Shown: positions 1,412 to 39,544 of the stretch, one piece after another | Layout: the number at the start of each line of letters is the position of its first letter | Position numbering within the stretch: the first letter of the stretch is position 1 | Source: a virus | DNA length: 64,000 nucleotides | Reading direction: 5' to 3' (one strand) | Virus record (IMG/VR): IMGVR_UViG_3300025598_002228 | Location: 5,029 to 69,028 of that record | Notes under the pieces: model-generated | The model's input: the letters and a program-made list of their open reading frames with translations, nothing else | The model's database searches: none | Told to the model about the DNA's origin: nothing | Program-made: the position numbers and the translations under genes

Positions 1412-1412
1412 G

Positions 1413-16234: not shown

Positions 16235-18931
16235 TTAAGGAGCACCGCCTGTTAATATTGCAAGATAAAATTTGCCATCGCTTTCCTGATACATGGATTT
16301 TGTTGGTGTACCACTATTCATCTCTGCGGTTGGTGTTATGGTTTTTCCATTTATATAGTCCAAGAAGCTGTGATTTACTATTTCCCCTGCAATTGTACAA
16401 TTAACTACACTTTGCCCCATTATAGTATTAAAAGCCCCGCCGAGTACCACGTTACTTAACTCATTAAGATTGCAAACCAATATATCAGAATTTGTAGTTT
16501 CGGTTACATTAGTAATAGTATTTACGTTGTTTTGCCTTATCCCACTTGTTATCACTACTGATTGTATTAATGAGCCAGTATTGTTATCTATGCGATTAGT
16601 CGTATTGCTCAAAATTCTTCCAACTACATTGTATGACAAACTTGAAGATATTGCATTATTATCAATTATTCCGCCACTATTATATTGTATAATACCAAGA
16701 CCGCTATTGTTAGTTATAACATTCGTTTGATTGTTATAAATACCCCCAGTATTTGTATTACCTGCAATAGTATACCCATTGTTTTGCTTTATCTCCTGCA
16801 ATGAAGTGTTGAATGAAATAGTTTGTACTATGTTATTTGCAATATTGCTAAAATTGGCATTTTGCGAGATAACCGAACCACTATTGTCTACTATTGTTGC
16901 GCCTGATGAGTTATTGTTATCTATTGAGCTAACAATATTATCACTTATGATGCCAGTAGTATTATTATTTATTGTCGTACCTGAATTTCTTGCTATAGTA
17001 TTACAAGTGTTATTATTAATCGTGTTTACGCTATTATTTATGCATTCAACAGCTATTGTATTAGTGTCAATAAAATAGCAATTATTTTGATTTATTGAAG
17101 CTGCACCGCCATTATTGGTTATTTGATAACCAACGTTATCGCTGATAGAGCCTGTATTTTCGTTATTTTCTATCAATACTACAATGTTACCTGATATAAC
17201 TCCGCATCCATTGCCTGAAATAGTGTTTCCAGTATTGTTGCTAATGTTTCCAGTTGTAGTATTACTAAGGATGCTTAGGCATGAGTTACCAGTGATGCTA
17301 CCTGTATTATTGTTGCCATTTATTTGAACGGCTATATTTTCAGATATTTCAGTAACAAAACCGAGATTGGCTTTTATTTCTATGCATGTATTGTATTGTA
17401 TCGCCCCCGTATTACTATTAATTGAAATGTCATTACCGCAAGTGTTATTAGATACGTTATCACAAGAGTTGGTGTCAATCGAATTAGCGACATTACTGTT
17501 AATACCATTAGGGCAGGTATTAGCATTAATGATGTTAGCAATATTATCTAAGCAATCGGATGAATTACCTGTAATCGCCGAACAAACATTTCCTGTTATA
17601 TTTATACAAGTATTACCGCTTATTTCATAGCAATTATTTGTTGATATAACCGCACTCGAATTAGTCATGTTATTGTTTTGAATAACACTTCCTACGTTAT
17701 TATTCATTACAGCAACCGTATTGCTGTTAATAGTATCTATGTTATTATTGGCTATTTGCTGACACACATTGCCATTAAACTGATTTATGGTGTTACCAAT
17801 AAATATATGTCCAGAATCGGGCGCAATTATGCTGTTATTTTGAACATAATTTATATTATTCACCCCATGAAGGTCGCAAGCTATAATGTTGTTAAAATAT
17901 ATGTTATAAGAACAAGAAAACATTAGACCATCGCCTGTCGAAAAACAGCTAATGGTATTTCCATATGATTTATTAACAATAACATCAAATACAACATTCA
18001 TATTTGAGAAAACGGTATTATCAAGCCAATAGGGAGTACCGAAAAACGCTCTCTCTTGAAGAGGACTTCCGATATTTATTTGCCCAACATTACCACAGTT
18101 ATTAAAGCAATTAACGTCAATAGATGCTGCACCTGCTACTGGTGTATAAGAGTAATACAAGCCATTACCTATAACTGTTTCCCACCGCCTGAAAACTACA
18201 TTTCTCCAATCATAATCCCTTCCTATATTATTAACCGCATCTTTTCTGTATATAATACATCCTTTACCCTGACTTGCAGCATATTCATAATCTCCATCAG
18301 GTACAGAAATTTGATAGTTAATAATATCATTAGGGAATGTGAGCGATTGAGCAGAAAGGCTTATCTCACTATTTGAAATAGCTTGCACGAGTAATGGCTC
18401 TACCGCCCCTAAATGCACAGCCTCACCACCTATACCGCCACTGCCAGTACCACTATACTGAATATAAGAGGCAGTTTGATAGTCGGTAATCAGGTAAAAT
18501 GCACCTGCATTAAGATTACCGCCATTTATAAGAGAAACAAGTTGAGTATAGGTAACGTTATTATATATGGGTGTACCACCTCCACCAGTACCGCTTGATA
18601 CATCAAGCCATACATTACCTGTTATATAAGTTACAGCGTCTAAAATTAAGAAGGATTTGTTACCTGTAATACTTTTGGTTGTAATTATAGTACCAGAGTT
18701 TTCGGAAATTGCATCTGTACCCCCTGCATTTAACGTTAATGTTGTACCACTATCACCAACGAGCGCAATTATAGTACCAGCCTTTTTTATACTGTTAATG
18801 CTCGGTAAATTTACCGTTACGTTACCTCCGCCTGTTGCTAAAATGAAAGTATATGGAAAGTTTACAAGTCCACTGAACTCTATTGCATTTAAGTTATATG
18901 GAGAATTTGATGATGAAACCTGTATTATCAT
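16235..18931 (-). CDS. Parallel beta-helix protein, candidate receptor-binding spike/fibre
   Basis: TYTQLVSLINGGNLNAGAFYLITDYQT fibre-type N-domain; ~500 aa Asn/Ile-rich I..N...I..N repeats; TAAATTTG promoter at 18952-18959. Confidence 0.7.
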   Translation of the reverse strand: MIIQVSSSNSPYNLNAIEFSGLVNFPYTFILATGGGNVTVNLPSINSIKKAGTIIALVGDSGTTLTLNAGGTDAISENSGTIITTKSITGNKSFLILDAVTYITGNVWLDVSSGTGGGGTPIYNNVTYTQLVSLINGGNLNAGAFYLITDYQTASYIQYSGTGSGGIGGEAVHLGAVEPLLVQAISNSEISLSAQSLTFPNDIINYQISVPDGDYEYAASQGKGCIIYRKDAVNNIGRDYDWRNVVFRRWETVIGNGLYYSYTPVAGAASIDVNCFNNCGNVGQINIGSPLQERAFFGTPYWLDNTVFSNMNVVFDVIVNKSYGNTISCFSTGDGLMFSCSYNIYFNNIIACDLHGVNNINYVQNNSIIAPDSGHIFIGNTINQFNGNVCQQIANNNIDTINSNTVAVMNNNVGSVIQNNNMTNSSAVISTNNCYEISGNTCINITGNVCSAITGNSSDCLDNIANIINANTCPNGINSNVANSIDTNSCDNVSNNTCGNDISINSNTGAIQYNTCIEIKANLGFVTEISENIAVQINGNNNTGSITGNSCLSILSNTTTGNISNNTGNTISGNGCGVISGNIVVLIENNENTGSISDNVGYQITNNGGAASINQNNCYFIDTNTIAVECINNSVNTINNNTCNTIARNSGTTINNNTTGIISDNIVSSIDNNNSSGATIVDNSGSVISQNANFSNIANNIVQTISFNTSLQEIKQNNGYTIAGNTNTGGIYNNQTNVITNNSGLGIIQYNSGGIIDNNAISSSLSYNVVGRILSNTTNRIDNNTGSLIQSVVITSGIRQNNVNTITNVTETTNSDILVCNLNELSNVVLGGAFNTIMGQSVVNCTIAGEIVNHSFLDYINGKTITPTAEMNSGTPTKSMYQESDGKFYLAILTGGAP

Positions 18932-19013
18932 ACTACGCTATAATTTAACTGCAAATTTAATGATTGCTTTAGTGCTAACCCCATAAATATTGTCAAGCCA
19001 ACACTTTACATCA

Positions 19014-19412
19014 TTATAGATTTAGCTCTGATTCGAGGTCGAGCCACCTTACAAATTCGAGGGATTTTTGAAGGGCAAGGTTTACTGTTGGGTCTTCATC
19101 AGACTGCGCTACCAAAAGCACGCTAACTTCGCTTTTTTCACATCCTAATTCTTGCGATAAAACACCTAAAATAAACTTTAACCCACTGCCAATTATCAGG
19201 GTTTTATTCAAAAAGTCTAATTTTATGTTTAGTATATCATGCTGTAAGCTAAGGTTCTTTTTAAATTCACCTTGTACATACAACTTATACTCTATCTGCT
19301 CATCGGCATTAGGTATTAGTAACACTTGTATATCACGATAACCTACACCGTACTCTTTAGCATAAAATGCTAATTTATCCGAAAATAACTTTTCTATTTC
19401 TTTAATGTCCAT
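19014..19412 (-). CDS. Hypothetical protein
   Basis: 132 aa ORF. Confidence 0.55.
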   Translation of the reverse strand: MDIKEIEKLFSDKLAFYAKEYGVGYRDIQVLLIPNADEQIEYKLYVQGEFKKNLSLQHDILNIKLDFLNKTLIIGSGLKFILGVLSQELGCEKSEVSVLLVAQSDEDPTVNLALQKSLEFVRWLDLESELNL

Positions 19413-19440
19413 ACTATGTATTTTGGGCGCAATATAACAA

Positions 19441-19935
19441 TTATTGAATTAATTGCCCTAAATTTTCCTGAATTTGGAATGGCAAATTACTTACATCAAT
19501 ACCATCTACCGCTCCCGAAACATACCCTATAAGTTTAATATTTATGGAATTTAGGTTGAGATTTTTTAGTATAGATGATAAATCAATACTTCCCAATATC
19601 GTAGCTATATTAAAATAGATATTAAACGAGACCTGAGATGTGGCGTTAGCAATAATAACCTGATTGGTATTTTGTATTACCTTGTTTATATACTTATCAT
19701 TAATATACACATCGAAATTGAGATTTGTTACATTAATTGTTAGTGCCGATATATTGGTAACATTTAAAGTTAAATTTAAACCTATATTACCGCTTTGCAT
19801 GGGCAGCATAGATGCACCAGCAAATGTTATACGCATTTGCTTTGCAAGCATTGCCTGTTTATAAATAGAATAACCAACTATACCGAAAATAGCTGTTACG
19901 AATCCTCCTACTGCATATACTAATCCTTTTGCCAT
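19441..19935 (-). CDS. LEA_2/WHy-like beta-sandwich membrane protein
   Basis: N-terminal TM; LNLTLNVTNIS.LTINVTNLNFDVYIND...IIANATSQVSF. Confidence 0.65.
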   Translation of the reverse strand: MAKGLVYAVGGFVTAIFGIVGYSIYKQAMLAKQMRITFAGASMLPMQSGNIGLNLTLNVTNISALTINVTNLNFDVYINDKYINKVIQNTNQVIIANATSQVSFNIYFNIATILGSIDLSSILKNLNLNSINIKLIGYVSGAVDGIDVSNLPFQIQENLGQLIQ

Positions 19936-19936
19936 A

Positions 19937-22900
19937 TTATTGAGCTATTGCTGGTTGTGAAGATGAAGATGGTTTTGATAAAGCAAGATACGCTATAGCA
20001 CAAACTACTAATACACCTCCTATTCCTGCAATCAGAAGTGTAGTATTGCTTTTAGGGGTTGTATCTAATGCCGCCTGCTTTGTATTGTCCTGCTGAAATT
20101 GCTGTAAGGTTTGCCCCTGCAATTTATTCATCTGAATGTCCGATTGCCTTTGTGTAGAATCCCTTTGTGCTTGCTCAATTTGAGATGCTGTCCATCCACC
20201 ATCTACACAACGGCTTCTTACACGCTTGCAACTCCACTCCTCATTGCCTTCCAACTCGGCTTTAAGGCAACGCTTTCTATCCATTGCCCTTGCTGTTCTT
20301 CCGCACCAGTGAAACTTGGCTTCGAACCTTGCGGGATGTGCGCCTGTATCATCATTATACCATTTCATAACAAGTATTATTGTTTTAATTAATCTCCAAA
20401 TGCTCTGCCCGATATTTTTTGATGATGATGGGTATGCTTATGATGTGTACCACTATTATCATGCTCATATGCAATCGGCAACTTATCGAAATCTATCTCC
20501 TCTTTGTTTTGATAATAATTAAACCCGTCATCATGCAAAAATGCATCATCTGCATATTCACATAAGCCATCCGCATTAGATGCACCCTGCTTCATAGCAT
20601 CGCTTACTGTAGGTATTTTAGTAACGGCAGGTTTATATGCTGTTGCTGGATTTTGCCGTTGTATATTACTGCCACAAAAAATAAAAATGTTCGGATGCCT
20701 AACATCCTGTACATGATAAAGCTTCTTATTATTTATAAACACATAATACGCTTTATTTACCTTTAGCTTACGACCCTTTAAAAAAAAGCCCTTGCTATGT
20801 ATTTTACCGTCTGCTCCCATATAAAAAGCAGTTGTTTTTTTGGTAATCACTATTTCTTCAATGTGATTTACTTTGTCTTTATTTTGCTTTGCCTTTTCCA
20901 TTAATAGTGAATTTTAGTCGTTAGGGTATTTTGCGTTTAATGCGTCAACTGCCGATTGCCACTTAGGGTCTGCCAGAGATACCCAGTTGTTAGGGGCGGA
21001 TTTCTTAGCTGTATACCATATACCATCCTTTTTTTGATAATTGTATATAGTATCAAAATCCGTTCTCACTGGTGGTGTTACGGTTGTAGCTGATGTGTTA
21101 TCTGATGGGGTTTCAGTTGTTGGGGCATTGCTGCTATCATCTTGCACTGGCTTGTTATCACTTTTAGGTGATATAGGGGCTTTGGGTTGCGGTGTTTTTT
21201 TGCTACCCTTTACCACAAAATAAATGCCTACAGCAGCACTTACAGTGAGTACTCCTATTACCGAGCCAAGTATTATTTTTGTTTTATTGTCCATCCTTTA
21301 AATATTTAAGAAATTGGTAATACAATATCAGTGTTTATTTTACCTGCAAGAATATCATCATAATGCGATTTTTGCAGCTTCAAATCCCTATATTTTAAAA
21401 ATGCCGAGAAGCAAAACCTAAAAGCCTTACTACATATTGCTTTCAGTGTTTCCTCACCCATGCTACCATCGGTTACAAGATTTGTACCGAAGTTTGTATT
21501 AAGGGCTTTCTGAATATCCCAAACAAGCTTGTTTTTACTCCCCACTACAAGAGGAAAGCTACCAGCAGGTAAATGGTCGCCATAGTTTATAATATCATAT
21601 CGTACTTGCTCTGGTGTATCACCAACAATAGGAGCACCAGTAGTTGTATCGCCACCAGATGAAATATTATCTCCAGTAGATTGATTGGGCTGTTGATTAC
21701 CACTGCCGCCATTATTAGGGGCACTTCCACTTGTACTGGTTTTAATAGTTGATGATACTTTAGGCTTACGTGTAATAAAATAAATACCAACACCTACCCC
21801 AGTTGCCAAGAATAGCCCACCTAATGTATATACAACTATTGATTTTGCTTCCATCTATGTTAATTTACTTGTATAATTCAAAATATATTTCTGCAAATTG
21901 TCATTACTCATATTGTTTTTTAGATATGATAGCATATCTGTTTGATTATATTCATTATAAAATCTATCCGCAAGCTGAGATACTTCACATTTACTTGTTA
22001 AATTCTTAAATACACTTTCTAATGCAGTATAATCATTAAAGAATACCCCTATTGCTCCATGAACTTTATCCGCCTGACTTTTTAAAATTGCACCGTCTAT
22101 GATTCCACATGGAGTATTCTTATATGTATTTATATCGAATGCCGAACCTTTACCTAATGCATCGCTAACTGCATCATCATTTTGCTGAATAACATTAATT
22201 AGATAGTCAAAATTAGCCTGACGTTGTTTTTTATTATAAATAATAGGCGCAGCGATTCCGAAGGCAGTTGTAGCCACTAATCCTACTCCTAACAAAATAT
22301 AACCTATGTTACTGCCTTTCTTCATTATACTAACGCTGCTTTTGCTGCTGTGCCTGCTACTTTTCCCGCATCAGATGCACTTAATGTTATTATTCTTATC
22401 GCTAATCCACCAACCAATATAACAGCTATTCCAATCGCTGAATAAAATACTATTTTTGTTCCAGTGCCCATAGTATTGAAAAACCCACCAATATAACTTA
22501 CTGCGTTTGAGCCTGTCTGTTCTAAATTTTGCAAAAAGTTCTTAGATAGATTTAATCCAGTACCTTTTTCAACTTCTATTACATCTGCTGCACCATTTGT
22601 TCCTCTTTTTGCCCACCTTAACACAAATGCCTGTATAGCTGCACTTGTGCCATATACATTTACAAGTGCATTGTAAAATTGAATCCACTCATCCGATGTT
22701 GATTTCTCATTCGGCAATAATAATATCGGGTCTATACTGACTGACATGTTATCTCCTTCTAAATGCGCTGTTAGCCCTATATACACCTCCACCAAAAGCA
22801 CTTAACCTCAATTGTCTTGGCGGTGTTGTTCTTATTATAGGTGTTGTATTTGTTAATCCACTTAAACCCGATGTACCACTTGTACCTGTACCTGATGTAC

Positions 22901-27620: not shown

Positions 27621-27623
27621 CCT

Positions 27624-28562: not shown

Positions 28563-28568
28563 TGTTTT

Positions 28569-29381: not shown

Positions 29382-29412
29382 GCTATTTTGTTTTAAGTTT
29401 ATTTAATCGTGT

Positions 29413-30680
29413 TTATTGTGGTGATTGAGATTGATTCCTTTTATAGATGACGAAGCCTATAACGCCAACAACTATAAGTCCACCTATGATTATAGGTACT
29501 ATGGGTAGTGAAGACTTTGTGGCAAGTGATTTCGTGTTTTGTGCACCCTGTCCGTTTGTGCTATTATCTTTAGGTAATGAGCCGCTTCCCGAATCAGAAG
29601 GATTTGCGCCTCCTTGCCCCGTTGCTGGCTGTGGAGCAGGTGATGTATTATCGGTACTCTGCATTAATATGTTAGCTTTATTAAAGCTTGCTTTGCTGTC
29701 TACTAACGCCTGCTTTAGCACCTTTAAAGCTTGGGAATATACACCTGAATTGTTTTTAATTGCATTGTCTATATCACTGGCAAACCAATCTTCATGCCAT
29801 CTATCGCTTGGTTTGGCTTTATGTAGATTGTTCCAATAAGTCCATACAACATTATCCTGTGCCTGAACTGCGGTGTTCAAATCCGCACCAGAATATTGGC
29901 TACTTAAAGTGTTTTGTGCAGCTAAATATCCATCTTTTACCCATTTTGGGTAAATAGATAGCGTTGTGTCAGCATTGATTACCATATTATATTTTGTTTT
30001 TTTTTACATAAAAAAATATGCCTGCTCCTATGGATATTAAGGCAACACCTACAACACCATAAAATACAGGTTTATTAAGACCCAATATCTTATTTTGAGG
30101 GTTTTCCACTTTAGTAAGCGTTATCCCTGATTTTTCTGGTGGTAGGGGTTTCCTGCCTTTTGCTTCTAATTCTGGACTGATTAAGCTCATATTATTTAGT
30201 TTTATCGTGAATTAATTTTTGAACTCTTTTTAGCATCAGCAATTCGCTATTTGATATGCCTTTTTGATGCTTTTTCTTTTCGATTACTTCTATTGCGATT
30301 TTTTTCTCAACCTCATCTACTTTATGTGATACTGCCTCTTTAGTATGAGTAATTGCTTCACCTATTTTATGCGTAGCCGTATTTATGGCTTCTTTAAAAC
30401 TCCCGCCCTTTTTAAATTCTCCAGCAGGTGTTGATTCCCAATTTTGTTGGCTTACGGGATTACCAAAATCCATTTCCTTTTGTAATTCCCCCATTTCGGT
30501 GGCATTATTTTCAGGCACATTCTCTGATATTTGTACATCAGGCTGTACTGGGGCTGGTGGTGGCACAACGGCACTATCTAATAGTGTCGGTGGCGTACTG
30601 TTTGATAAATCTGTAGTTACAGAATTTACGCTTGCGTCTTCGCCTAAAAATGCCTTCGCATGAGAAAATAGATGAAACAT
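29413..30680 (-). CDS. Three putative virion proteins (29413 and 29987 C-terminal TM; 30192 soluble with KKGG)
   Basis: ORF track; hydrophobic C-termini followed by basic residues. Confidence 0.6.
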
Positions 30681-31489
30681 TATTTTACAATTTTAAAGTT
30701 AGTCCTATCAAATTTTTCTACAAATTCTTTCAGTTCTTTCCATCTTGCCATATTAAAATCAGATGGTGTCCTGTAAAATACTTTGCAAAATGCTCTCGCC
30801 CCTTCTTGTCTTGGAAAGCCAAGACCACAATATATCAGTAATGCATTATGGTCAGCTTCAAACTCATCACTGTGTACTTCATTCAAATAGAAATGGGAAA
30901 ATTCATGTAACAAAATGGCAATAGTTTCGGGTATTGTATATTCCTTTACATACTTCTTAGCCAATTCCATTACGCCATTATGATTATTAACCCTCATAGA
31001 AGTTTTACGTGGTTTACCGTCATCTCCTATTATCTCATCTACGTAATGAATAACAAATCTTCCGTCATCAGACTTGTATATACTTCGGTTCTTACCTTCA
31101 TCACTATGAGTTGATAAATAGTTTTTACACTCGGCAAACTCCTTAGCAAACTTTATAAAGCTCTTTAAGGTTTTATTGCTTGTCTCATATACATCGAGGT
31201 TAGCCGTAAATGGAACTTTTTTAATACCGCCTATCTTAAATCCCTTATCCCTATTTCTTTTATCTTTTACGCTTGCATTCCATATGCTTATTACCCCATC
31301 TTTAGGGCATAAAGGCAATCTTATATCAATTACCCTTGACCCATCTACCCATGTTTTAGAATAGGTATAAAAGGTATCACGGCATTTAGCAGAATAAACA
31401 GCAACTCCTATCAACATCTTTTGAGGTGTCTTAATATTTACCTTGAACATGCAAGGTCGCTTGAAGGGGTTTTGAATGTTTATCTCCAC
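30680..31489 (-). CDS. Zincin metallopeptidase (HEXXH)
   Basis: ILLHEFSHFYL...DEFEADHNAL. Confidence 0.7.
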   Translation of the reverse strand: MEINIQNPFKRPCMFKVNIKTPQKMLIGVAVYSAKCRDTFYTYSKTWVDGSRVIDIRLPLCPKDGVISIWNASVKDKRNRDKGFKIGGIKKVPFTANLDVYETSNKTLKSFIKFAKEFAECKNYLSTHSDEGKNRSIYKSDDGRFVIHYVDEIIGDDGKPRKTSMRVNNHNGVMELAKKYVKEYTIPETIAILLHEFSHFYLNEVHSDEFEADHNALLIYCGLGFPRQEGARAFCKVFYRTPSDFNMARWKELKEFVEKFDRTNFKIVK

Positions 31490-33939
31490 TATTTTTGAGT
31501 TTGTGATTCTTTTCTAAAAAATAAAAATAACCCACCTGCTATGAATAACACCGTTACCCCACTTACAATAAAAAATGTGCCTTTTTGCATACCCAGAATC
31601 TTAGTCGGTTCGATATTATCCAAATTGACTGGCTTCAAATCGTCTTCTTGTGCAGATTGTGCCTCTGTATTAGCATTATCTGAATAGTAATTCTGCAATA
31701 CCCTTGAAGGACTATCATTAAAAATATCGGCAAACTCTTTAAAGCTGCCTTTAAAGAGATTAGTCCTAACAGCCTCCCTATATTTCTTTGATAAGCTTTC
31801 TGTTTTACTTTCCATGTTACTTTGCTGCTGGTGCTGGTGAATTGCTATTTCCGCTCGTTGCTAAATATATGCCTGCCCCAGCAACTAATACCAAAACTAA
31901 AGCACCTGCAAAAAATACAGGGGTACTCATACCAAGAATCTTTCCACTACCTGCTGGGCTTGGTACTGGTTGACCGCCTCCGCCTTTGGGTATTGTTCCA
32001 CCACCGCCACCACCTTGACCTTTTTCAACTGCGGTTGCTATTTGTGAGCCTACATTCACACCTGCCCCTAAAAGATTAGTTATTCCCGACACTGCTTGTG
32101 TGTTTTCGAGAAATTTCATAAATCCGCTTTTTTCGCCGCTTGTTGCGGGTGCTGGACTTTCGCCACTTGTTGCGGGTGCTTGATAGCCTGCTGGTGGCAT
32201 TTCAACTCCTACATTTGTAGATGCTGCTGGTGCGTAAGGTATTACTGTGGAATCATCTCCGTAATATTTTGCCAATTTGCTTAATGAGCTTCTTGAAAGT
32301 GTCATATCTTTTTATTTATAATTGTTTTACTAATTCCATATCCTATTAACCCACCCGAAACACCACCTATCAGTCCATACCATAAAAGGCTTTTGCCTTT
32401 CATCAATGCTATGGCAAATCCGCCAAAAGCACCTATTGTAAGTCCTGTCATAGACTTTCTTGCCGTATCTAAAATATCAGAGGCAAGATTCTTATTTACA
32501 ATATTGGCAACATCTTTATTTACCTTTTCATGTGCCTCACCTGTATCACTATCAAACACCGTTTCTACCTTTTTTACATACATTATAGGTATAACATATC
32601 CATCCGCCTCTTTAATAACCTTTACAGGTTTCCCTTTATATACAGCATATCCGTTAGGATTACCGCCAATATATTCACCCTTTCTAAAAAGCCTTTGCAG
32701 CCTATCGCCATTGGCTTCTGTATTATATTTAGGTGCTGTGAAATCATCTGTTATAAAATAATTTGGCATATTATGCGCTTTTTACTGCTGGTGCTTGTGC
32801 TGCTATATATGCAGGGGAACTTGCCCTGCGAGACATCACTACTACCACAAAACCTAAAACTAACAATGTCCCCACCCCTATCATTATCAATGTTGTTGTT
32901 GAAGCACCGCTTAATTCTGATTGCTGCTGTGCTTTCAATGCATCCGACTGTGTTTTAGCAGACATTAGTGTCTTAAACATATCAGCCCTCGTTGTCATCT
33001 CCACTTGCTTTGTTCCTTCCTGCGCCTCTTGCAGCCTCATGCGTTCAACTTTCGGTGCAGTAACCGCATTCGCTATCCCACCTACAATATTTCCTACCCC
33101 GCTTACTATACTTCCTATTCCTGTTATATCCTCTGAGTATTTTTTACTTTCGAGTAATAGCGTTTCAACCAGATTTTTTAGAAATTCTTTGTTGGCATTA
33201 TCAATACCAGCGACAATTAATTTTGCTAAGTCTTCCGATTTTATATTGTCGGGTATTTGCTTTCCTGATTTTTGCACAACACGAACTAATGCAAGCTTAT
33301 CTTTCGATAATATTTTGCCCACTTCGGACAATAAAACTTTAATAACCTGTTCATGGTTATTGGCTTTTATTGCACCTGTGATATTTTGTTCGAAATTATG
33401 TTGTTTGTACTGCATTACTTTTTATTTAGCGATACTAAGGATAAAGCAATAACCCCGAACGTGCCCAATATCATTGCACCCACGAGTAATTCATTAATAT
33501 GGGATTGATTATTGGTATTTAACGCTGGTGCTTTACCACCAGTTGATGTTCCGTCATCTCCATACGTTTTTACATTCGCAAATCGCAAATCCAGCTTTGC
33601 GTCTTTAAGCTCTTCTTTATGTTTTGCACTAAGTTCTTTTAATTCCCTCTCGTGCTTTTTTTCTATTTCATCTATGTGTTCTTTAAAGTAATTTTCAAAC
33701 ACATCATAATCAGGGTGTATGCTGATTAAATCGGGTATCACATCCTCTTTATGTTGCTTATACAGCGTTCGCAGCTTATAATAAAGCTGTATTCTATCAG
33801 AGGCTTTAGGTATACCATATTTACCAAGTACCGCCTGTGCCTTTTCAACTGTTTTTTTGTCGGCTTTAGCTATACGTGTAAAGATATTCTCTTTTATTTT
33901 CGGTGCTGCTGGAGCTTCAACTTCTTGGTCTCTGAACAT
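31489..33939 (-). CDS. Five C-terminally anchored putative virion membrane proteins (31489, 31817, 32302, 32771, 33415)
   Basis: C-terminal TM helices, abutting or overlapping genes directly downstream of the capsid candidate. Confidence 0.65.
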
Positions 33940-34015: not shown

Positions 34016-34756
34016 CTAAGATAGAGCCTTGCCACTTGGAGCAATAAGCTTAACTGTCTGGTCAAGATAAGTGTCAGGACGGCGAAGGTCTTTCACCACG
34101 CCCTGACCCTCAAGACCACGTTTAAGCGATGCCACATCAGCCGCATAGAAGAACCAACGGCAAATGGTATTAGGCAATTGGTTATATTGCAGTTCTGTAC
34201 CGCCATAAATAACCATATCAGTTTCAGTCTCAATCGCGTTAGATTGATACTGGTTCAGCTTCCTAAAGTTAACAACTGGGTAGGTAACTTGCTTACCAGT
34301 TGGGTCGAAGTCGTTAACATTGAGTGTTGCCGATAGCTGTAATGCTGTATCACATTCCAAACGTATGCGACCAAAGGTCAAAGGTGCAGCCTCAGTACGG
34401 GCAAGCAATGCACCGTAGCCTGATGTACCACCACCATAATAACCTGTAAAGTCATAAGTGATTGAAATTGTGTTGGCGTTGCCAAAGTTTGTAGCGGTAC
34501 GGTTCTTTTCTGAACCATATAGTACCACCGATTGTGTGGCGTTATCTGATGACGTAACAGTAAAGATATACGGCATTGATATTTGCGGCTTAGGGGCACG
34601 GCGCATTGGTTGTGCTGCTGCTTCGCTGTAATTATCATACTTAAAAGCGTCATCACCAAAAGCGTCATCCATATCGAAACCACCATCATTGCTCCAATCA
34701 CCTATGCTGCTTAGTTGCTCATCAAGGATTGAACGGTTTTTGTTTCTTGAAAACAT
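34016..34756 (-). CDS. Candidate major capsid protein (beta-rich, possible single jelly-roll)
   Basis: Higher-GC coding than neighbours, own terminator, alternating beta-strand pattern, acidic N-terminal extension, two paralogues and a packaging ATPase nearby; fold is inferred. Confidence 0.55.
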   Translation of the reverse strand: MFSRNKNRSILDEQLSSIGDWSNDGGFDMDDAFGDDAFKYDNYSEAAAQPMRRAPKPQISMPYIFTVTSSDNATQSVVLYGSEKNRTATNFGNANTISITYDFTGYYGGGTSGYGALLARTEAAPLTFGRIRLECDTALQLSATLNVNDFDPTGKQVTYPVVNFRKLNQYQSNAIETETDMVIYGGTELQYNQLPNTICRWFFYAADVASLKRGLEGQGVVKDLRRPDTYLDQTVKLIAPSGKALS

Positions 34757-35323: not shown

Positions 35324-35476
35324 TGTGTTATTTTTTTATGGTTAATTTGTTTGTTAATTACAATTGCAAAGTACGTAAGAAAAAAAATAACAAATTAAGC
35401 TTTATCCTCAACTTATAATTTGCGTTTAGCTTTATTGAGTATTTAACTTAAAATCTTATCTTTAGATTTGATTTTT

Positions 35477-35484
35477 TATTTTTG
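35477..35484 (+). promoter_or_regulatory. Bacteroidota -7 promoter TATTTTTG in divergent region
   Basis: 14 nt upstream of ATG 35499. Confidence 0.5.
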
Positions 35485-35498
35485 CAAAAAAAATATAG

Positions 35499-36137
35499 AT
35501 GGCATCATATCATAATGTAGATGGGGAGCAAATAAAAATAGAAACCCCTTTAATAGTAAATATATTACCGTTGCTTTCTTTCTCGGCAACTGCCGCTATT
35601 TTATCATATCAAAAAAAGAAACCTACTACTGTTTTATTATTTAGCCTGCTTGCTGGCGTGGCTGGATTTATACCAAGATTATTCCTAAACAAAATTGCAG
35701 TTGAGGATGCGAAAAAAAATAATCTTACAAAGAAAACAGTTATTGCTCCTGAGCAAGTAACTAAAACCCCTGAGCCTACTCCTAATGCTGTTCTTGCAAT
35801 AGATACCCCTAAAATAATATTGCTATTAGAATCTGTTGCTGGGAAAAATAAAACCTTGCAAAATTTCCTTCCCAAGAAAGATTATTTTACTAAGGTTATT
35901 GATTCTTTTTCACAACAACAAAAAGATGCTGCCTTTGAAATCGTAACCGCAGTAAACGCTTTACCTGAAAAGCCATCTGATGATGATATAGGAGAAATGA
36001 TGGATAAAATGGCTTCTTTAGAATTTAAATATGGCAAAGAATTTATTGATAGCTTAAATTCAAAACTTCAAAAAATAAGTGCGAGTATTAGCCAACCTAA
36101 TACTCAGGAAGATACACTCTTAAATGCTGCCGTATAA
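35499..36137 (+). CDS. Two-TM membrane protein
   Basis: Two N-terminal hydrophobic helices, helical C-terminal domain. Confidence 0.6.
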   Translation: MASYHNVDGEQIKIETPLIVNILPLLSFSATAAILSYQKKKPTTVLLFSLLAGVAGFIPRLFLNKIAVEDAKKNNLTKKTVIAPEQVTKTPEPTPNAVLAIDTPKIILLLESVAGKNKTLQNFLPKKDYFTKVIDSFSQQQKDAAFEIVTAVNALPEKPSDDDIGEMMDKMASLEFKYGKEFIDSLNSKLQKISASISQPNTQEDTLLNAAV

Positions 36138-36838
36138 TGTTAGAGTGGCTCACCGATATAGTACCAAATGCTTATGACCTTGAAAATCTTTTTGGTCGTG
36201 CTAAGGGCTTTGGTATGTCTAATCCGTTTGTAGTAAATATATCTACTACTCCTACTTATGTTAATAGCGGGGCTATAAATATTTTTGGAGCTAACGTTAA
36301 CCGATTTTTACCTAATCAGGGTAATCAGCAAATTGATGTGGTAGGTAAATACACAGTATTAAGTTCTTATGGTTATAGTGATTATACTGAAAATGCTTTC
36401 CTTGCTAATACAATGCAAGCACCATTTCAATTAGGTATATTGCGAGTTGAGACTAATTCACCAAGTCAATTTGTTGCTCAGAATAATGTTATTAGTTATA
36501 TTCAGAACGAGCCTACTGGTGAAAGAAAACAAATATCAATCCCTTTATTCAAAAGGTTAAATCAATATCAAAATGATGCTGTTGAATTTGACTTATCATC
36601 ACACAAAATAATTATTGATGGTGATATGCAAATGCAATTTTTTATAAAATATGCCAATACTTCATTGAAGTTTTATTTTTATCCTACCGCAAAAGCTTCT
36701 TATAAAATATTACTTCAAACAGGCTTTATAGCTCAAACATACTCTTATCCATCCTTGCCATTATCATCTGATTATTCAGCTATAATTAAGCCTAAGAAGT
36801 TAGCTATGACCGATGATGCTAAGGCATTTTTTGTGTAA
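36137..36838 (+). CDS. Paralog of capsid candidate
   Basis: SNPFVV, FGANVNR, APFQLGILRVE, EPTG, KRLNQYQNDAVE, IDGD, FYFYP match 34016..34756. Confidence 0.65.
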   Translation: MLEWLTDIVPNAYDLENLFGRAKGFGMSNPFVVNISTTPTYVNSGAINIFGANVNRFLPNQGNQQIDVVGKYTVLSSYGYSDYTENAFLANTMQAPFQLGILRVETNSPSQFVAQNNVISYIQNEPTGERKQISIPLFKRLNQYQNDAVEFDLSSHKIIIDGDMQMQFFIKYANTSLKFYFYPTAKASYKILLQTGFIAQTYSYPSLPLSSDYSAIIKPKKLAMTDDAKAFFV

Positions 36839-36842
36839 CCCC

Positions 36843-37448
36843 TTACTTTGTATCGGTTACGGGGAATAAGAAAACCCTCAAAAAAATCTCTGGCATTAAG
36901 CTCAATTTGATATTTGTTTTTGAATCTACCTTTAAATCAATATCCCTTTCAACCACATATTGCATGAATTGATTTAATTGAACAAACATGTAATGCATTG
37001 TTTCTTCATTATTTTTTCCACCTTTGTTTAGATTGTAAAAAATAGGCTCTGAACATTGTATTCTTGCGTATTTTTCATAGTCATGTATGCATTCAATGCG
37101 AATGCGACCTATTTTAACATCTCCTTTTTGTAATGCTTCTATTATCTCAATCGGTGTCTTTATAAAGCTTGGATATTCTGGTGTAGACAAAGTAACCCTT
37201 TTATCATATTCACCCGTTTCTAATGCTTGGGCGAGATTATTTATCTCAAACTTAAATATCCTTTCAAAGCTATTGTTTTTAATCTCCAATATATACGGCA
37301 TAGACATCTTTTGCTTATAATCAGGTGCAATAAATATGGTGTGCCTTGCCTTGTCTTTTATACCTTTCCCCTTAGCAGCCGACATCTTAGGTATCTTAGC
37401 CTGTTTTTTCTGTGGTGCTTTTGTATCTGTTGTTTTTGCTTTTTCCAT
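36843..37448 (-). CDS. Second paralog of capsid candidate with basic N-terminal arm
   Basis: SMPYIL, IGRIRIEC, LNQF...VE.DIDL.VD, LMP...RVFLFP. Confidence 0.6.
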   Translation of the reverse strand: MEKAKTTDTKAPQKKQAKIPKMSAAKGKGIKDKARHTIFIAPDYKQKMSMPYILEIKNNSFERIFKFEINNLAQALETGEYDKRVTLSTPEYPSFIKTPIEIIEALQKGDVKIGRIRIECIHDYEKYARIQCSEPIFYNLNKGGKNNEETMHYMFVQLNQFMQYVVERDIDLKVDSKTNIKLSLMPEIFLRVFLFPVTDTK

Positions 37449-37467
37449 TTTTTTATTTTGATGTTAA

Positions 37468-38313
37468 TTATACCGTACAATATTCTTTATAAAGTTTATT
37501 CTTAACTACCTGCAATGCTTGCGAAGGCGTATATTTTCTTTGATTAGTAAGAAAATCTATTCGCTTAATTTCTTTCTGCACTATATTTTGATTCTCTTCC
37601 AAATAATCCATGATGGCTTTATCAAACATTGCCCTGCTATATGCACCCCTTATCTTTTTATCCTCTTTATCAACCCAAACAAAAAACCTTGTATTGCCTG
37701 CATTATATTGAAAATCTACCATTAATTGAGCTATCTTGAATATCTCATAATCTTCTTTCAGTTTTTCTTTGGACTGGTCTACACTATCAAGCTGGGCATG
37801 AAACCTAATCATCTGTGTATTCTGCCACATCTTAGGCAATATCCTACCAATGGATTGCATTTGTATTATTATATCACAGTCCCTATGAGCGTTATTAGTA
37901 AAGAATGCAGAAACCTTTTTAGGTAATGAATCTCCGAATACGGTATTCAAATCTTCAATAAATAAGCATCCGCCCCTGAACTCCGACATCATTTTCACAA
38001 TCAAATCATCCTGTTCATCTGGCGTAAGAGGCTGACCGAAATTATTAACGGGTACTATTCTTCTTATTTCAACTACTTTTTGTTTATTAAAACTTAAAAT
38101 ATCATTATGACCGAGCAAGGGAACATTGACAATAACAATTCCTCCCCTATCGTATAATTCATATGCCCCATATTCATTGTTAGGGTCGAAGATAAGTACC
38201 TTACGCCCATGCTGCCCCCTGCAATATTCATTATATAGAGTGCGTAGCGTTTCATTGGATTTACCGATTCGTTTACGCCCAGTTACTACTACTAACTTTG
38301 TCTCTCTCGCCAT
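37468..38313 (-). CDS. Genome-packaging ATPase, FtsK-HerA/A32-like
   Basis: Walker A GRKRIGKS, VLIFDPNNEY, Walker B CLFIED, AHRDCDIIIQMQ..RILP...QN; likely start MARETK. Confidence 0.7.
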   Translation of the reverse strand: MARETKLVVVTGRKRIGKSNETLRTLYNEYCRGQHGRKVLIFDPNNEYGAYELYDRGGIVIVNVPLLGHNDILSFNKQKVVEIRRIVPVNNFGQPLTPDEQDDLIVKMMSEFRGGCLFIEDLNTVFGDSLPKKVSAFFTNNAHRDCDIIIQMQSIGRILPKMWQNTQMIRFHAQLDSVDQSKEKLKEDYEIFKIAQLMVDFQYNAGNTRFFVWVDKEDKKIRGAYSRAMFDKAIMDYLEENQNIVQKEIKRIDFLTNQRKYTPSQALQVVKNKLYKEYCTV

Positions 38314-38338
38314 TGTAATTATACTTCTTACTGCCTGA

Positions 38339-39544
38339 TTAAGGCTGGTTGCTTTCAATAGGGACAATTTCCACACCTATATTTTGCGCTTCGCTTCTTT
38401 TATTGTCGCCATCGTAAAAAGGCACTTCTCTTACATTAGGATTTGTAACCTCTGAATTAGGCATTTCAAAAGTTTCAACGAATTTGTTATTAGGTGTCTC
38501 TGTAAAATTCTCTGAATATACCGTTGCCTGCTGAGGTGTTTCTTGTGCAGGCGGTGTCGGTTTCTCTTTCTTAATTACCGTAGGCTCGCTTTTTTCTACT
38601 CTTGCTGCCTGCTGCTGGAATAATTCTTCCCTGAGCTTCTTTGTTTCTTCATAGCTCTTCATTACCGATTTGGTAAAATTATTCATCGTGCTTTTTAGCT
38701 GATATACAGCTAAGGAACGCTGCCCAGCATCCCTTACAAAGTGCTGTATGATATATTGCATATCGCTTATACCCCAACCCCTTTTAGTAAATTCCCTAAC
38801 CATTGCCGCCCTTACATCCTGAAATGATTGTGATGTAAGATTAACTGTAAGTGCTTCCTTTGCTTGACTATTAAAGGTATCGTATACTTCTTTTAAGGAA
38901 GCCTCTTTGCCATCTTCCCCTACACCGATTCGTATATCAAGGCTTATCTGGTCTTGCATTACCCATTCAATAATCTTATCATCAGATACCTCAACCCATT
39001 TTGAAGTAAAACCCCAAAATTGTTTATAGCCATCTAATATGGCATCTACAAGTAATGTCGAAGCTTGCTTTGCATCTTTTTCAGGCAAGCCCTGCATGTC
39101 TGGGTTTAATTTTTGCGGTTGCGGAGCGGTTGTTTGTGCGCCTCCATTATTGATAGGTGGCTGAGATTCACCTGACATGGTATTACTCCCAGCATTTTTG
39201 TTAGGCGGTGGTGGCGGAGGCATTGTAATCTTAGGTTCGGGCACTCTTTCAATTATTTGTTCATTACCGCTTGCTTCTAAGCCTGCCTTTGTTGCATAAT
39301 CCCTTTTTTTGGTCTCACCCTGCAAAGGATTATATTCGTCTCCTATTTTATGCGGGTCATCATTCACTGTAGGGGGAGTGGTATTCGATTCAATTATTTC
39401 TGCATCGGTAATACTGCTATTATCATTAATATTTGTCATTGTTTCGTTGTTATCGGTTATCTCTTCATTATCCATTTGCGGTATATTGTCCTCATCAAAT
39501 ACCGATGGCTGCTTTCTGCCGTTTGTTTTAATCCCTCTTGCCAT
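38339..39544 (-). CDS. Hypothetical protein upstream of ATPase (acidic/Pro-rich arms)
   Basis: 401 aa ORF. Confidence 0.65.
   Translation of the reverse strand: MARGIKTNGRKQPSVFDEDNIPQMDNEEITDNNETMTNINDNSSITDAEIIESNTTPPTVNDDPHKIGDEYNPLQGETKKRDYATKAGLEASGNEQIIERVPEPKITMPPPPPPNKNAGSNTMSGESQPPINNGGAQTTAPQPQKLNPDMQGLPEKDAKQASTLLVDAILDGYKQFWGFTSKWVEVSDDKIIEWVMQDQISLDIRIGVGEDGKEASLKEVYDTFNSQAKEALTVNLTSQSFQDVRAAMVREFTKRGWGISDMQYIIQHFVRDAGQRSLAVYQLKSTMNNFTKSVMKSYEETKKLREELFQQQAARVEKSEPTVIKKEKPTPPAQETPQQATVYSENFTETPNNKFVETFEMPNSEVTNPNVREVPFYDGDNKRSEAQNIGVEIVPIESNQP

Follow-up and report, generated by a model that had tools for sequence, protein, structure and literature searches.

The genes at positions 16235-39544 of the 64,000-nt stretch of DNA analyzed here (the window) raise the question of what kind of particle, if any, they serve to build. 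The stretch belongs to the 69,028-bp record IMGVR_UViG_3300025598_002228, which IMG/VR files among viruses, in its class ‘inverted terminal repeats’. A 4.66-kb inverted terminal repeat, not remarked on in the initial annotation, bounds the record: its left copy (contig 1-4660) takes up the 5,028 bases outside the window, and its right copy lies, with no strand assigned, at 59341-64000 of the window. The block most likely is the particle-building module of an uncultured freshwater bacterial virus without tailed-phage genes. Gene content and predicted folds make it likely that this virus is tailless, probably with an internal membrane, and belongs to an undescribed lineage; we infer the membrane, the particle, and the taillessness from gene content. 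That annotation had read the block as the morphogenetic module of a very large tailless, membrane-containing Bacteroidota virus. Our results support this in part: a module in which an A32/B204-type ATPase accompanies jelly-roll proteins and numerous membrane proteins is present. Neither of the outcomes that the annotation named as refuting it was obtained, whether TerL, portal, or HK97 families elsewhere on the contig or an enzyme fold in the modelled capsid candidate.

That annotation had also reported that terminase, portal, and HK97 capsid genes are lacking in the window, and this holds for the remainder of the contig as well. A six-frame Pfam search of the whole 69,028-bp record gave no match at E ≤ 1 for Terminase_6N, TerL_ATPase, Phage_portal, or Phage_capsid, and PHROGs searches on 20 of the approximately 67 ORFs gave no match to a tail family. 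As such profiles can miss highly divergent forms, one may suppose that the virus is a tailed phage after all and that its terminase, portal, capsid, and tail genes either escape the profiles through divergence or are encoded on sequence absent from the record. The CheckV completeness of 39% and the presence of five unannotated ORFs of at least 350 aa (350-900 aa), none of them above the Pfam cut-off or in PHROGs, would agree with this reading. However, none of those five has a Walker A motif; one encodes the Asn-repeat protein, two encode GG-modular proteins, and the remaining two encode a TM protein and a protein that is half disordered. A B204-type ATPase gene adjoining jelly-roll genes is, moreover, not a known arrangement in Caudoviricetes, so that a tailed phage appears very improbable.

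A canonical Walker A motif occurs in two of the 57 ORFs, those of DnaB and of the candidate genome-packaging ATPase (37468-38376, minus strand, 302 aa), which is assigned by this motif (GRKRIGKS), its fold, and its synteny. Its Pfam matches are weak (DUF87/HerA, E 4.3e-5; Zot, E 0.005). B204 of STIV and STIV2, which represents the A32-like packaging ATPases of the FtsK-HerA superfamily among solved structures, ranked first for this protein by three methods. Among the Foldseek matches listed for the AF2 model (pLDDT 92.9), ranks 1-13 (11 rows) were all STIV/STIV2 B204, with E values of 3.7e-9 to 2.2e-7 and TM-scores on the target of 0.59-0.66, followed by Zot as the next family (6e-6). VIA aligned B204 over 188/204 residues (Z 18.2, rmsd 2.6), ahead of DndH (16.2), HerA (16.1), and VirB4 (15.4), and a 63-sequence family profile searched against PDB sequences also had B204 as its best match (E 8.5e-4), with Walker A and an NRH...Q block in register. 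The A32/FtsK-like ATPase of the initial annotation is therefore real. Its modelled fold is clearly B204-like, and we regard the protein as a candidate packaging motor. Like B204 in the Turriviridae, it is a small stand-alone P-loop domain encoded beside capsid-type genes, but the two are only 13-16% identical, and the present protein adds a C-terminal helical extension of approximately 55 residues (247-302). Its relatives fall into 399 clusters. In related metagenome contigs, numbered within L001-L010, it is 63-84% identical (L001, L002, L004, and L010; 77-84% in the first three), and the gene directly upstream (38339-39544, minus strand), which encodes a conserved 401-aa protein without Pfam or PHROG match, is syntenic in the same four contigs (36-53% identity).

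As HerA, DndH, and VirB4 score only 2-3 Z units below B204, the ATPase may serve a non-packaging role. This bears on a quite unlikely reading of the record as a non-viral mobile element, i.e., a linear or circular plasmid-like replicon whose ATPase, membrane proteins, lysins, and polyvalent proteins would function in DNA transfer or defence. HerA, DndH, VirB4, and TrwB all reach Z 13-16 against the model, SLT-type lysins are found in DNA transfer systems, and polyvalent proteins reportedly occur in conjugative elements as well as in phages, as Iyer and colleagues are said to have described in 2017; genes for IS1595, IS605 TnpB, and an MmeI-type enzyme would also fit a mobile element. However, six-frame searches of the whole record gave no match for Relaxase or for the VirB4 N-domain (CagE_TrbE_VirB), both of which were found in a control Bacteroides genome, and the ATPase is a 302-aa stand-alone protein like B204 rather than an 800-aa VirB4. 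The record is moreover filed as a virus, encodes a phage-type endolysin (3604-4221, outside the block; phrog_181, E 3e-58), and has jelly-roll paralogues kept beside the ATPase gene.

These paralogues are the candidate 1 protein (34016-34756, minus strand, 246 aa), paralogue 2 (36137-36838, plus strand, 233 aa), and paralogue 3 (36843-37448, minus strand, 201 aa, with a basic N-terminus). The initial annotation was right to recognize three beta-rich paralogues. In BLASTP, candidate 1 matched paralogue 2 with E 1e-17 (28% identity) and paralogue 3 with E 2e-6, and in profile-profile comparison (hhalign) its family matched the two with probabilities of 99.2% (E 1.3e-19) and 94.4% (E 8.6e-8), respectively; paralogues 2 and 3 compared with each other were not significant alone (E 0.17). 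While their paralogy stands, just two of the three are kept in relatives. Candidate 1 has 27 homologues, is syntenic in L001-L006, and is 67-74% identical in the contigs that share the gene order given below, and paralogue 2 has nine and keeps its position in L001, L002, and L004 (50-56%) and in L006 (42% over the part present). Paralogue 3, in contrast, is genome-specific, having no homologue except itself in 5.8 billion proteins and no counterpart at the matching position in L001, L002, or L004. Between the two conserved paralogues lies the gene of a two-TM protein (35499-36137, plus strand; TM segments 18-36 and 45-63), which is syntenic and 36-47% identical in L001, L002, L004, and L006. 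The order ATPase, paralogue 2, two-TM protein, paralogue 1, TM proteins is kept in L001, L002, and L004, and L006, whose sequence starts inside paralogue 2, keeps it from there on, so that four related contigs share the order in full or in part. Wherever the contig of a relative extends far enough, the two paralogues adjoin the ATPase. The same adjacency is seen in P23-77, where the ATPase ORF13 adjoins VP16 and VP17, and in PRD1, where P9 adjoins P3.

The structure was modelled for candidate 1, the other two being assigned by sequence paralogy. Its AF2 model has a disordered acidic N-terminal arm and a core at about residues 60-215 (pLDDT about 75-93) with approximately nine strands and one long helix. 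This core is a jelly-roll and not an enzyme, as the 50 rows that each structural search listed consist entirely of jelly-roll proteins, including viral capsids, pentons, TNF, carbohydrate-binding modules, and nucleoplasmin. However, the jelly-roll is a common fold, the best matches reach just Z 6.0 and 5.7, and TNF and carbohydrate-binding modules score like the viral proteins; the fold alone therefore shows no capsid role. Candidate 1 is without a close structural or sequence relative among known proteins: none of the fold matches listed is a Halopanivirales capsid protein, and the profiles of candidate 1 and paralogue 2 found nothing in PDB sequences, SSIP-1, P23-77, or PRD1. The best viral-type match is the 124-residue chain 6q5u_O of phage PR772 (Z 5.7). 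This chain and the PRD1 chain 1w8x_N (Z 4.3) we take, by chain length, to be the P31 penton protein, annotated in the PRD1 record as ‘penton’ with 126 aa. Together with the matches to STIV A223 (4ind), PM2 (2w0c_L), and a PBCV-1 capsid chain (8h2i_bC, 485 residues), and with the low CheckV estimate, it suggests another reading, in which a virus of the same type uses the paralogues as penton, turret, spike-base, or cementing proteins and encodes its shell protein in another unannotated ORF or off the record. We consider it unlikely: pentons and other jelly-rolls are not told apart by their Z values, two paralogues are conserved beside the ATPase, no other ORF has a capsid-like signal, and the Capsid_NCLDV and PRD1 P3 (double jelly-roll capsid) families gave no match in a six-frame search of the entire record. 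Candidate 1 and paralogue 2 are retained as candidate jelly-roll coat proteins, from the candidate 1 fold and the conserved gene order. With single jelly-roll candidates and no NCLDV hallmark seen on the record, the suggested position between small membrane phages and NCLDVs is not borne out.

If the block builds a tailless, membrane-containing particle, the run of approximately 20 small single-pass membrane proteins at 19441-33939 (minus strand, soluble ones interspersed), recognized from hydropathy and translations, would be candidates for its internal-membrane and delivery proteins. With a 19-residue Kyte-Doolittle window of at least 1.6, TM segments were found in 20 of 39 non-overlapping ORFs of at least 50 aa starting at 15,800-40,500. 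Sixteen of these are minus-strand genes of the run and one is the two-TM protein above, while the other three, all on the plus strand and either short or antisense, are doubtful as genes. Four more ORFs (22749, 28569, 32302, and 32771) have a hydrophobic end segment that was below threshold or masked. The run described in the initial annotation therefore exists, but the total of membrane-anchored proteins is about 21 rather than about 23. Of 20 small ORFs searched, none reached a Pfam cut-off; the TM proteins of the block are 36-53% identical in relatives, and several genes of the run keep their position in L003, L004, and L006. Of the anchored muramidases announced in the plural, the block holds one, a GH108 protein (26892-27620, minus strand; Pfam E 6.7e-15; C-terminal TM 215-233) that is 62% identical in L004 and is a candidate virion-associated lysin, whereas an SLT protein with a TM segment (10977-11666) lies outside.

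Three further proteins of the block may belong to the virion or its maturation. An 898-aa protein (16235-18931, minus strand), recognized by composition and periodicity, contains 17% Asn and repeats about every 8.5 residues, as seen from autocorrelation maxima at 8, 17, 25, and 34; it has no Pfam, PHROG, or PDB sequence match and is a candidate vertex spike or receptor-binding protein, for which the initial annotation had proposed a beta-helix. A 489-aa modular protein (25430-26899, minus strand) combines eight [YFLK]xxGG motifs with a DUF6496 module (Pfam E 4.2e-8), its L004 homologue having 11 such sites. A zincin-like protein (30680-31489, minus strand) has a weak, below cut-off SprT-like match (E 0.0011) and an HEFSH motif kept in its L004 homologue (61% identity), which makes it a candidate maturation protease.

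Among known viruses, the closest in design are the Halopanivirales (Helvetiavirae, now in Singelaviria), which are defined by the vertical orientation of their jelly-rolls and include P23-77 and IN93 of Thermus and the haloarchaeal SH1, HHIV-2, and HCIV-1. They share with the record a pair of paralogous single jelly-roll genes that adjoin the gene of a packaging ATPase, as well as virion-type lysins, many small membrane proteins, and the lack of tail genes. However, their genomes are 16-31 kb, compared with 69 kb with 4.66-kb repeats here, their hosts are extremophiles whereas those of the record would be mesophilic freshwater organisms, and searches of the record detected neither a protein-primed polymerase family nor a terminal protein. 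The ATPase profile found no similarity in P23-77 ORF13 (E 0.13). In P23-77, SH1, and, reportedly, SSIP-1, two such jelly-roll proteins form the capsomers. PMC4958249 and PMC6356626 describe the P23-77-type design with two single jelly-roll capsid genes, and PMC12643093 gives sphaerolipoviruses linear genomes with inverted terminal repeats. According to table 1 of PMC6260650 and to PMC6356626, SSIP-1, a tailless phage in culture whose host belongs to the Bacteroidota group, has an internal membrane, T=49, two capsid protein types (‘single jelly roll?’), and a circular genome of 43,788 bp (JN880423). Like that of the record, its genome is exceptionally long among viruses of this build, but SSIP-1 is circular and hypersaline, whereas the record has inverted terminal repeats and 1.6 times the length. 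The best E that any of three profiles reached among the SSIP-1 ORFs was 0.027, which is not significant, and a tblastn search of all phage records with the ATPase and with candidate 1 found nothing. As judged from sequence, the resemblance to Halopanivirales and SSIP-1 is one of design only, without detectable kinship. PRD1 and PM2 (Tectiviridae/Corticoviridae, Bamfordvirae) also encode a P9-type ATPase beside their capsid protein; their internal membrane contains many small TM proteins, and their lysins are membrane-associated, all of them features predicted for the record. In contrast to its single-barrel-sized candidates, they use one double jelly-roll capsid protein; their genomes are 10-15 kb, and PRD1 has a protein-primed polymerase, families of which gave no match in the record.

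We propose that the genes of 16235-39544 assemble the virion of a dsDNA bacterial virus that is tailless and probably contains an internal membrane, and whose genome would be the 69-kb record with its 4.66-kb inverted repeats at both ends. From folds and gene order, candidate 1 and paralogue 2 would build the capsomers of an icosahedral shell, paralogue 3 being an accessory or vertex protein, and the B204-like ATPase, at a vertex, would pump linear DNA into a preformed procapsid lined by a membrane. The subsequent steps are suggested by gene content and analogy. The approximately 20 single-pass proteins would enter the host membrane and then the particle as internal-membrane proteins, where they would scaffold assembly, form the packaging vertex, and act in delivery, and a viral phosphatidylserine decarboxylase (14370-15077, minus strand; Pfam PS_Dcarbxylase E 1.7e-33; nearest Atlas clusters all PSD) may adjust the lipid supply. 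The anchored GH108 lysin would open peptidoglycan during entry, and the Asn-rich protein would be the host-recognition spike. Proteins with [YF]xxGG modules may be packaged as cargo and cut at these motifs by a virus protease, possibly the HEFSH protein. They would include two polyvalent enzymes (42797-53676, minus strand, assigned by Pfam), one of 1936 aa with a Strawberry-notch-type helicase (52% identical in L010) and one of 1673 aa with TopoIB, ART-PolyVal, NUDIX, and methyltransferase domains and nine xxGG motifs.

The two repeat copies have one mismatch over their first 4,479 bases and few more thereafter, diverging from 4,661, and the Logan contig depth over the repeat is 1.2-1.9x that of the unique part. 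The repeats lie at the record ends and, as predicted from the record, may be the physical genome ends. However, a Logan contig of 291 nt extends 135 nt beyond the record end, and one relative of candidate 1 lies on a 203,472-bp contig; with the CheckV value, these suggest that the record may be an incomplete genome. The longest contigs among the relatives are 70,763 and 80,963 bp, so similar sizes recur. At 69,028 bp, ‘jumbo’ is not an apt term, and the stated range of about 10-30 kb for known genomes overlooked SSIP-1; nevertheless, a genome of 69 kb, if that is its size, would be larger than that of any described virus of the same build. The assignment to Bacteroidota is circumstantial, based on missing Shine-Dalgarno motifs (4/57 genes, the same as background) and on phage matches of GH108, about half of which are Bacteroidales phages. 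The record also encodes the IS1595, IS605 TnpB, and MmeI-type proteins mentioned above.

Tailless viruses with a membrane-lined jelly-roll shell count among the most ancient of virus architectures, and the design with two single jelly-roll proteins has been proposed as a forerunner of the double jelly-roll. To our knowledge, those that infect bacteria and archaea have almost only small genomes (10-31 kb, with SSIP-1 at 44 kb), and the single jelly-roll type comes almost only from extreme habitats. The block at 16235-39544, which the initial annotation took for the morphogenetic module of a very large tailless virus of Bacteroidota, does contain what was observed there: an ATPase gene, three paralogous genes, a run of small transmembrane (TM) proteins, and no hallmark of tailed phages.

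The ATPase (37468-38376, minus strand, 302 aa) carries the Walker A motif GRKRIGKS at residues 33-40, and a canonical Walker A occurs elsewhere only in DnaB. Among 63 relatives, G38, K39, and D142 are invariant and E141 is nearly so. The protein is a small RecA-like domain that stands alone and has both a Walker A and an acidic Walker B motif, the arrangement by which A32/B204-like ATPases are recognized. Its Pfam matches are weak (DUF87/HerA, E 4.3e-5; Zot, E 0.005), and neither PHROGs nor a tblastn search of 50,697 phage records returned a match for it. When 1.84 billion representatives were searched exhaustively with HMMER, its relatives fell into 399 clusters (50% identity) at E<=1e-3, 309 at 1e-10, and 85 at 1e-30; nearly all are 250-340 aa long among the 150 clusters listed. 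A profile built from the 63 sequences and compared with PDB sequences found B204 of STIV2 (E 8.5e-4), B204 of STIV (1.7e-3), and HerA (2.2e-3), followed by P-loop noise. Against P23-77 ORF13 and PRD1 P9 the same profile gave E values of 0.13-1, so that an alignment with these proteins would be carried by the P-loop alone.

The AlphaFold model of the ATPase (pLDDT 92.9, pTM 0.87) gave a consistent picture. B204, the only packaging NTPase with a solved structure from icosahedral viruses that contain a membrane, accounted for all 11 rows listed among Foldseek ranks 1-13 (E 3.7e-9 to 2.2e-7), and was followed by the Zot N-domain (6e-6), Rad51 (2.5e-5), and VirB4 (6.8e-5). In the VIA comparison, B204 also came first (Z 18.2, rmsd 2.6, 188 of 204 residues), with DndH (16.2), HerA (16.1), VirB4 (15.4), TrwB (13.4), and FtsK (11.1) below it. 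By both methods the closest solved structure is therefore this viral packaging NTPase and not HerA, VirB4, or FtsK. Taken together, the profile, Foldseek, and VIA results place the enzyme in the FtsK-HerA superfamily with B204 as its nearest solved relative. In VIA, B204 leads HerA and DndH by just 2 Z units, and the margin that the model gives it over cellular HerA-type proteins is real but modest. The nearness of these proteins is the feature that a non-viral element could share. On the other side, a six-frame search of the whole record at E<=1 gave 0 matches for Relaxase (PF03432, the one relaxase family included) and for the VirB4 N-domain (PF03135), both of which scored above the cut-off in a positive control, the Bacteroides thetaiotaomicron genome; the relaxase and VirB4-type ATPase that together define a conjugative element were thus not found. 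A non-viral element has, in our judgment, low odds.

The three paralogous genes begin at 34016, 36137, and 36843. For the first of them (candidate 1; 34016-34756, minus strand, 246 aa), a jelly-roll had been predicted, and the model bears this out, as a single jelly-roll though one without a close relative. Its core, residues 60-215 (pLDDT about 75-93), consists of about nine strands and one helix that form one barrel of approximately 150 residues, and the ends are disordered. Candidate 1 has 27 relatives in metagenomes, whereas Foldseek found no match in the PDB at E<=1e-3; the weak top rows were the satellite tobacco mosaic virus coat protein, picornavirus capsid proteins, TNF-family proteins, carbohydrate-binding modules, and nucleoplasmin. 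VIA against 48,161 chains gave six matches at Z of at least 5, headed by a peptidase C-terminal domain at 6.0, with a 124-residue chain from phage PR772 second at 5.7. A faustovirus capsid protein (5.2), STIV A223 (4.9), PBCV-1 (4.8), and phiCjT23 (4.6) came next, and PRD1 chain N (4.3) and PM2 chain L (4.2) further down, with carbohydrate-binding modules and lectins intermixed. A search of BFVD gave an equally generic picture, and the ESM Atlas gave no usable match. Profiles of candidate 1 and of candidate 2 (36137-36838, plus strand, 233 aa) found nothing among PDB sequences and nothing significant among the ORFs of SSIP-1, P23-77, and PRD1, and a scan of IMG/VR with the capsid alignment yielded 72 pattern matches, of which 0 were confirmed. 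A complex prediction for candidate 1 (residues 55-246) with candidate 2 (score 0.00, mark 0.32), run without controls, is evidence neither way. As modeled, the fold of candidate 1 is a single jelly-roll, and we regard the protein as a candidate for the capsid role.

What gives these genes further weight is their place in related genomes. Relatives occur at eight metagenome loci, on one contig binned in GTDB, and on one fragment in IMG/VR, and we compared gene order by tblastn of 57 window proteins against these loci. Contigs of 70,763, 80,963, and 203,472 bp also carry relatives of the capsid candidates. Three of the loci (L001, L002, and L004) share the same order, namely the 252-, 122-, 144-, and 401-aa proteins (the last at 38339-39544, minus strand), the ATPase, paralogue 2 (candidate 2), the 2-TM protein (35499-36137, plus strand), paralogue 1 (candidate 1), and TM proteins, with identities of 77-84% for the ATPase, 50-56% for paralogue 2, and 67-74% for paralogue 1. 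The ATPase gene lies directly beside the jelly-roll paralogue genes in the window, and this position is kept in all three loci. In L004 the shared order extends further, to take in the HEFSH protein (61%) as well as the GH108 lysin (62%). A further locus, L006, starts only inside paralogue 2 (42%) and keeps the same order from there, and L010, the IMG/VR fragment, has the upstream part including a helicase-type polyvalent protein and stops just after the ATPase. The capsid profile found nothing in the whole of that fragment, which ends about 1.1 kb past the ATPase. Paralogue 3 (36843-37448, minus strand, 201 aa) is absent from L001, L002, and L004, and has no relative except itself in 5.8 billion proteins; since paralogues 1 and 2 are syntenic, the conserved core consists of the ATPase and two jelly-roll paralogues. 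In an alternative reading, the jelly-roll paralogues are not the main shell protein; carbohydrate-binding modules and TNF-family proteins score like viral proteins in the structural comparisons, and a capsid role does not follow from the fold by itself. The two conserved paralogues keep their place next to the ATPase, and we give this alternative low odds.

A tailed phage in disguise would have to hide every hallmark of its class from the profiles. The six-frame search of the whole record at E<=1 gave 0 matches for Terminase_6N, TerL_ATPase, Phage_portal, and Phage_capsid (PF03237, PF03354, PF04860, and PF05065), and the positive controls of all four families scored above the cut-off; the large terminase, portal, and HK97-fold capsid protein that define Caudoviricetes were thus not detected. 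The initial annotation had left room for such genes on the rest of the contig, and the 5,028 bases outside the window turned out to be just the left copy of a terminal repeat. Likewise, PHROGs gave 0 matches for the 10 largest or key structural ORFs (20 ORFs were searched there, and 60 against Pfam), and the five unannotated ORFs of at least 350 aa showed nothing above a curated cut-off. A disguised tailed phage therefore has low odds in our view. The same six-frame search gave 0 matches for Capsid_NCLDV and PRD1 P3 (PF04451 and PF09018) and for protein-primed PolB, three absences that come without a positive control at the cut-off. The mark of Bamfordvirae was accordingly not found, and the candidates are of single-barrel size, with the reservation that divergent double jelly-roll proteins may slip past the PF04451 and PF09018 profiles.

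The simplest account would be a tailless virus with a shell of two single jelly-roll proteins, which a B204-type motor would fill; inside it would lie a membrane in which the small TM proteins and an anchored lysin are embedded. Of the original interpretation, the B204-type ATPase, the jelly-rolls, and the lack of tailed-phage hallmarks stand; the third paralogue proved unconserved, and Bacteroidota is a possible host group. Overall, such a virus would most simply work like Halopanivirales and SSIP-1. Halopanivirales build their shell from two major capsid proteins, each with a single jelly-roll core, whose barrels are perpendicular to the capsid surface and combine into heteromeric pseudo-hexameric capsomers; here candidate 1 is modeled so and candidate 2 is assigned by paralogy. 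In P23-77, the ATPase ORF13 with VP16 and VP17 shows the same logic as the ATPase and the two jelly-roll paralogues. The capsid proteins of P23-77, SH1, and HHIV-2 were not among the matches listed for candidate 1 by Foldseek or among the best 50 of each VIA search, and the capsid profiles found nothing among P23-77 ORFs by hmmsearch. SSIP-1 gave no tblastn match and best E values of 0.027 and 1.6 in profile searches, and thus the detectable ATPase or capsid similarity that would make the virus SSIP-1-like was not seen. The likeness seen is one of design, and membership in either group is at most putative, because the searches found no sequence relation and the defining vertical orientation of the barrels is a property of particles.

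Table 1 of PMC6260650 and passages of PMC6356626 and PMC4958249 describe SSIP-1 as a membrane phage with a 44-kb circular genome, T=49, and two capsid protein types, and the same sources group P23-77, IN93, SSIP-1, SH1, SNJ1, HHIV-2, and PH1 as viruses with vertical single barrels. Genomes of 16-31 kb are given for Sphaerolipoviridae and Simuloviridae in PMC12643093 and PMC12642351. In open-access papers and bioRxiv, we came across no account of freshwater bacteria as hosts to a large lineage of tailless phages with single jelly-rolls. The virus predicted here from genes and folds would be a form of the known tailless jelly-roll design with a 69-kb genome, and the original interpretation is supported in part.

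The virus record is a single contig of 69,028 bp, of which the window covers bases 5029-69028. Its ends are classed as inverted terminal repeats in the source collection, with a CheckV completeness estimate of 39. Set against its reverse complement, the contig shows one mismatch (base 2124) up to base 4,479 and a few more at 4480-4562, and the copies diverge from base 4661, which sets the repeat at about 4.66 kb with a graded inner edge. The copies lie at contig positions 1-4660 (left) and window positions 59341-64000 (right), and encode an IS1595-type transposase, two lipoprotein-like ORFs, an HTH_3 protein, and a small array of tRNA-like units. In four public freshwater runs, whose Logan contigs we placed on 55000-64000, the unique-region contig ends at 59370, the inner repeat boundary. 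The ratio of repeat depth to unique-part depth (1.44, 1.63, 1.86, and 1.18 in X1, X2, X5, and X6, respectively) fits two copies per genome. A 291-nt contig extends 135 nt past the last base of the record in X1 and X2, and there was no strand-switch joint at the terminus among the joints listed, which come from contigs and not raw reads. As contigs are blind to molecule ends and the record is overrun by 135 nt, physical linearity of the genome is putative, and a hairpin, a terminal protein, and a circular form with a missing segment look alike in these data.

The tRNA-like units (63423-63755, minus strand) are spaced 133 nt apart, less than 600 nt from the record end, with 83% identity over 60 nt. 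One, with an 8-nt anticodon loop, scores above the Rfam tRNA cut-off (43.6 bits), and two acceptor/T-arm units score only as tmRNA ends; in one run there are joints that skip at least one unit. At 54852-58676, a complete MmeI-type restriction-modification enzyme (five MmeI domains, E down to 1.8e-85) is adjoined by a second IS1595 transposase; the 31-bp ends there are near-identical inverted repeats. The 1673-aa polyvalent protein (48655-53676, minus strand) contains a eukaryotic/poxvirus-type topoisomerase IB catalytic core (E 2.8e-24), a noteworthy feature in view of the long inverted terminal repeats.

The block encodes about 21 small membrane-anchored proteins between 19441 and 36137, and Pfam gave no match at the cut-off for any of 20 small ORFs. 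The GH108 lysin (26892-27620, minus strand) has a C-terminal anchor. The candidate spike, an 898-aa protein (16235-18931, minus strand) with 17% Asn, has a repeat period of about 8.5 residues that would fit a solenoid. From their translations, the adjacent C-terminally anchored proteins at 27624-28562 and 28569-29381 (minus strand) resemble tandem paralogues, and in L003 and L004 the 214-aa TM protein (32771-33415) is joined by a neighboring, weaker copy; the run of membrane proteins seems to grow by local duplication. The motif [YFLMK]xxGG recurs at module boundaries in 25430-26899, 30192-30680, 41444-42769, and 42797-53676, with eight sites in the 489-aa protein (the first of these) and 11 in its L004 homologue, nine in the 1673-aa polyvalent protein, and one or two in three others. 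The conserved HEFSH protein (30680-31489, minus strand) is the sole protease-like candidate seen, and cleavage at the GG motifs is our inference.

Combining these lines, we find the following plausible, though short of probable: a widespread, undescribed lineage, of family level or well above it, of 65-100-kb tailless phages of freshwater bacteria with an internal membrane and a shell of two single jelly-roll paralogues. The lineage would either stand on its own or be the counterpart of Halopanivirales among mesophilic bacteria, with a large genome. Its genome would be linear, with 4.7-kb inverted terminal repeats and replication without a protein-primed polymerase, and its particle would carry polyvalent polyproteins, cut at [YF]xxGG and delivered with the DNA. 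If this is true, jelly-roll shells scale to much larger genomes in bacteria, and the two-protein single jelly-roll design extends beyond extremophiles. It would also mean that tail-centered virus detection overlooks a sizeable group, as only one other IMG/VR record, and 0 of 50,697 phage records, yielded a relative, compared with the 399 ATPase clusters. How long inverted repeats are replicated without a protein-primed polymerase, and what GG-punctuated proteins with a putative cargo role mean for virion maturation, are separate questions.

With regard to the host, Shine-Dalgarno motifs precede four of 57 genes (7%, the background level), G+C is about 35%, and 52 of the 107 phage records matched by the GH108 lysin are Phocaeicola, Parabacteroides, or Bacteroides phages, all of which would fit Bacteroidota. 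Other routes to a host were set aside. The repeat transposase matched 478 plasmid records, all below 60% identity and from many phyla; the phosphatidylserine decarboxylase found mixed phyla in the Atlas; and the best phage matches of DnaB were unannotated fecal phage fragments and a cyanophage. The TAnnTTTG motif, located upstream of eight genes, showed no overall enrichment (45 per strand, with 50 and 27 expected). The sole host-type label seen belongs to L001, the one locus from the GTDB genome scan, an 8.7-kb contig in a public MAG labeled uncultured Alphaproteobacteria; we discounted it as a likely binning artifact of a viral contig.

Outside the block, the record encodes a phage endolysin, an SLT protein with a TM segment, a phosphatidylserine decarboxylase, a glycosyltransferase, an intein-bearing DnaB, and two polyvalent proteins. 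The decarboxylase gene (14370-15077, minus strand; E 1.7e-33) overlaps an upstream FMN-reductase-like ORF, and its presence in a virus suggests possible lipid remodeling during infection. In DnaB (4538-7303, minus strand), the DnaB_C match is split at profile position ~197 and accompanied by an Intein_splicing match. The reading frame is broken within the intein by one in-frame TAA (5951-5953), which could mean that the gene is a pseudogene, that an A-rich run was misread in sequencing, or that the arrangement is a split one. Abutting the dnaB start is an IS605-type TnpB gene (7303-8472, minus strand) with OrfB_IS605, Cas12f1-like TNB, and HTH domains, and the 51,728-nt unique-region Logan contig starts at about this gene, as expected at a repeat.
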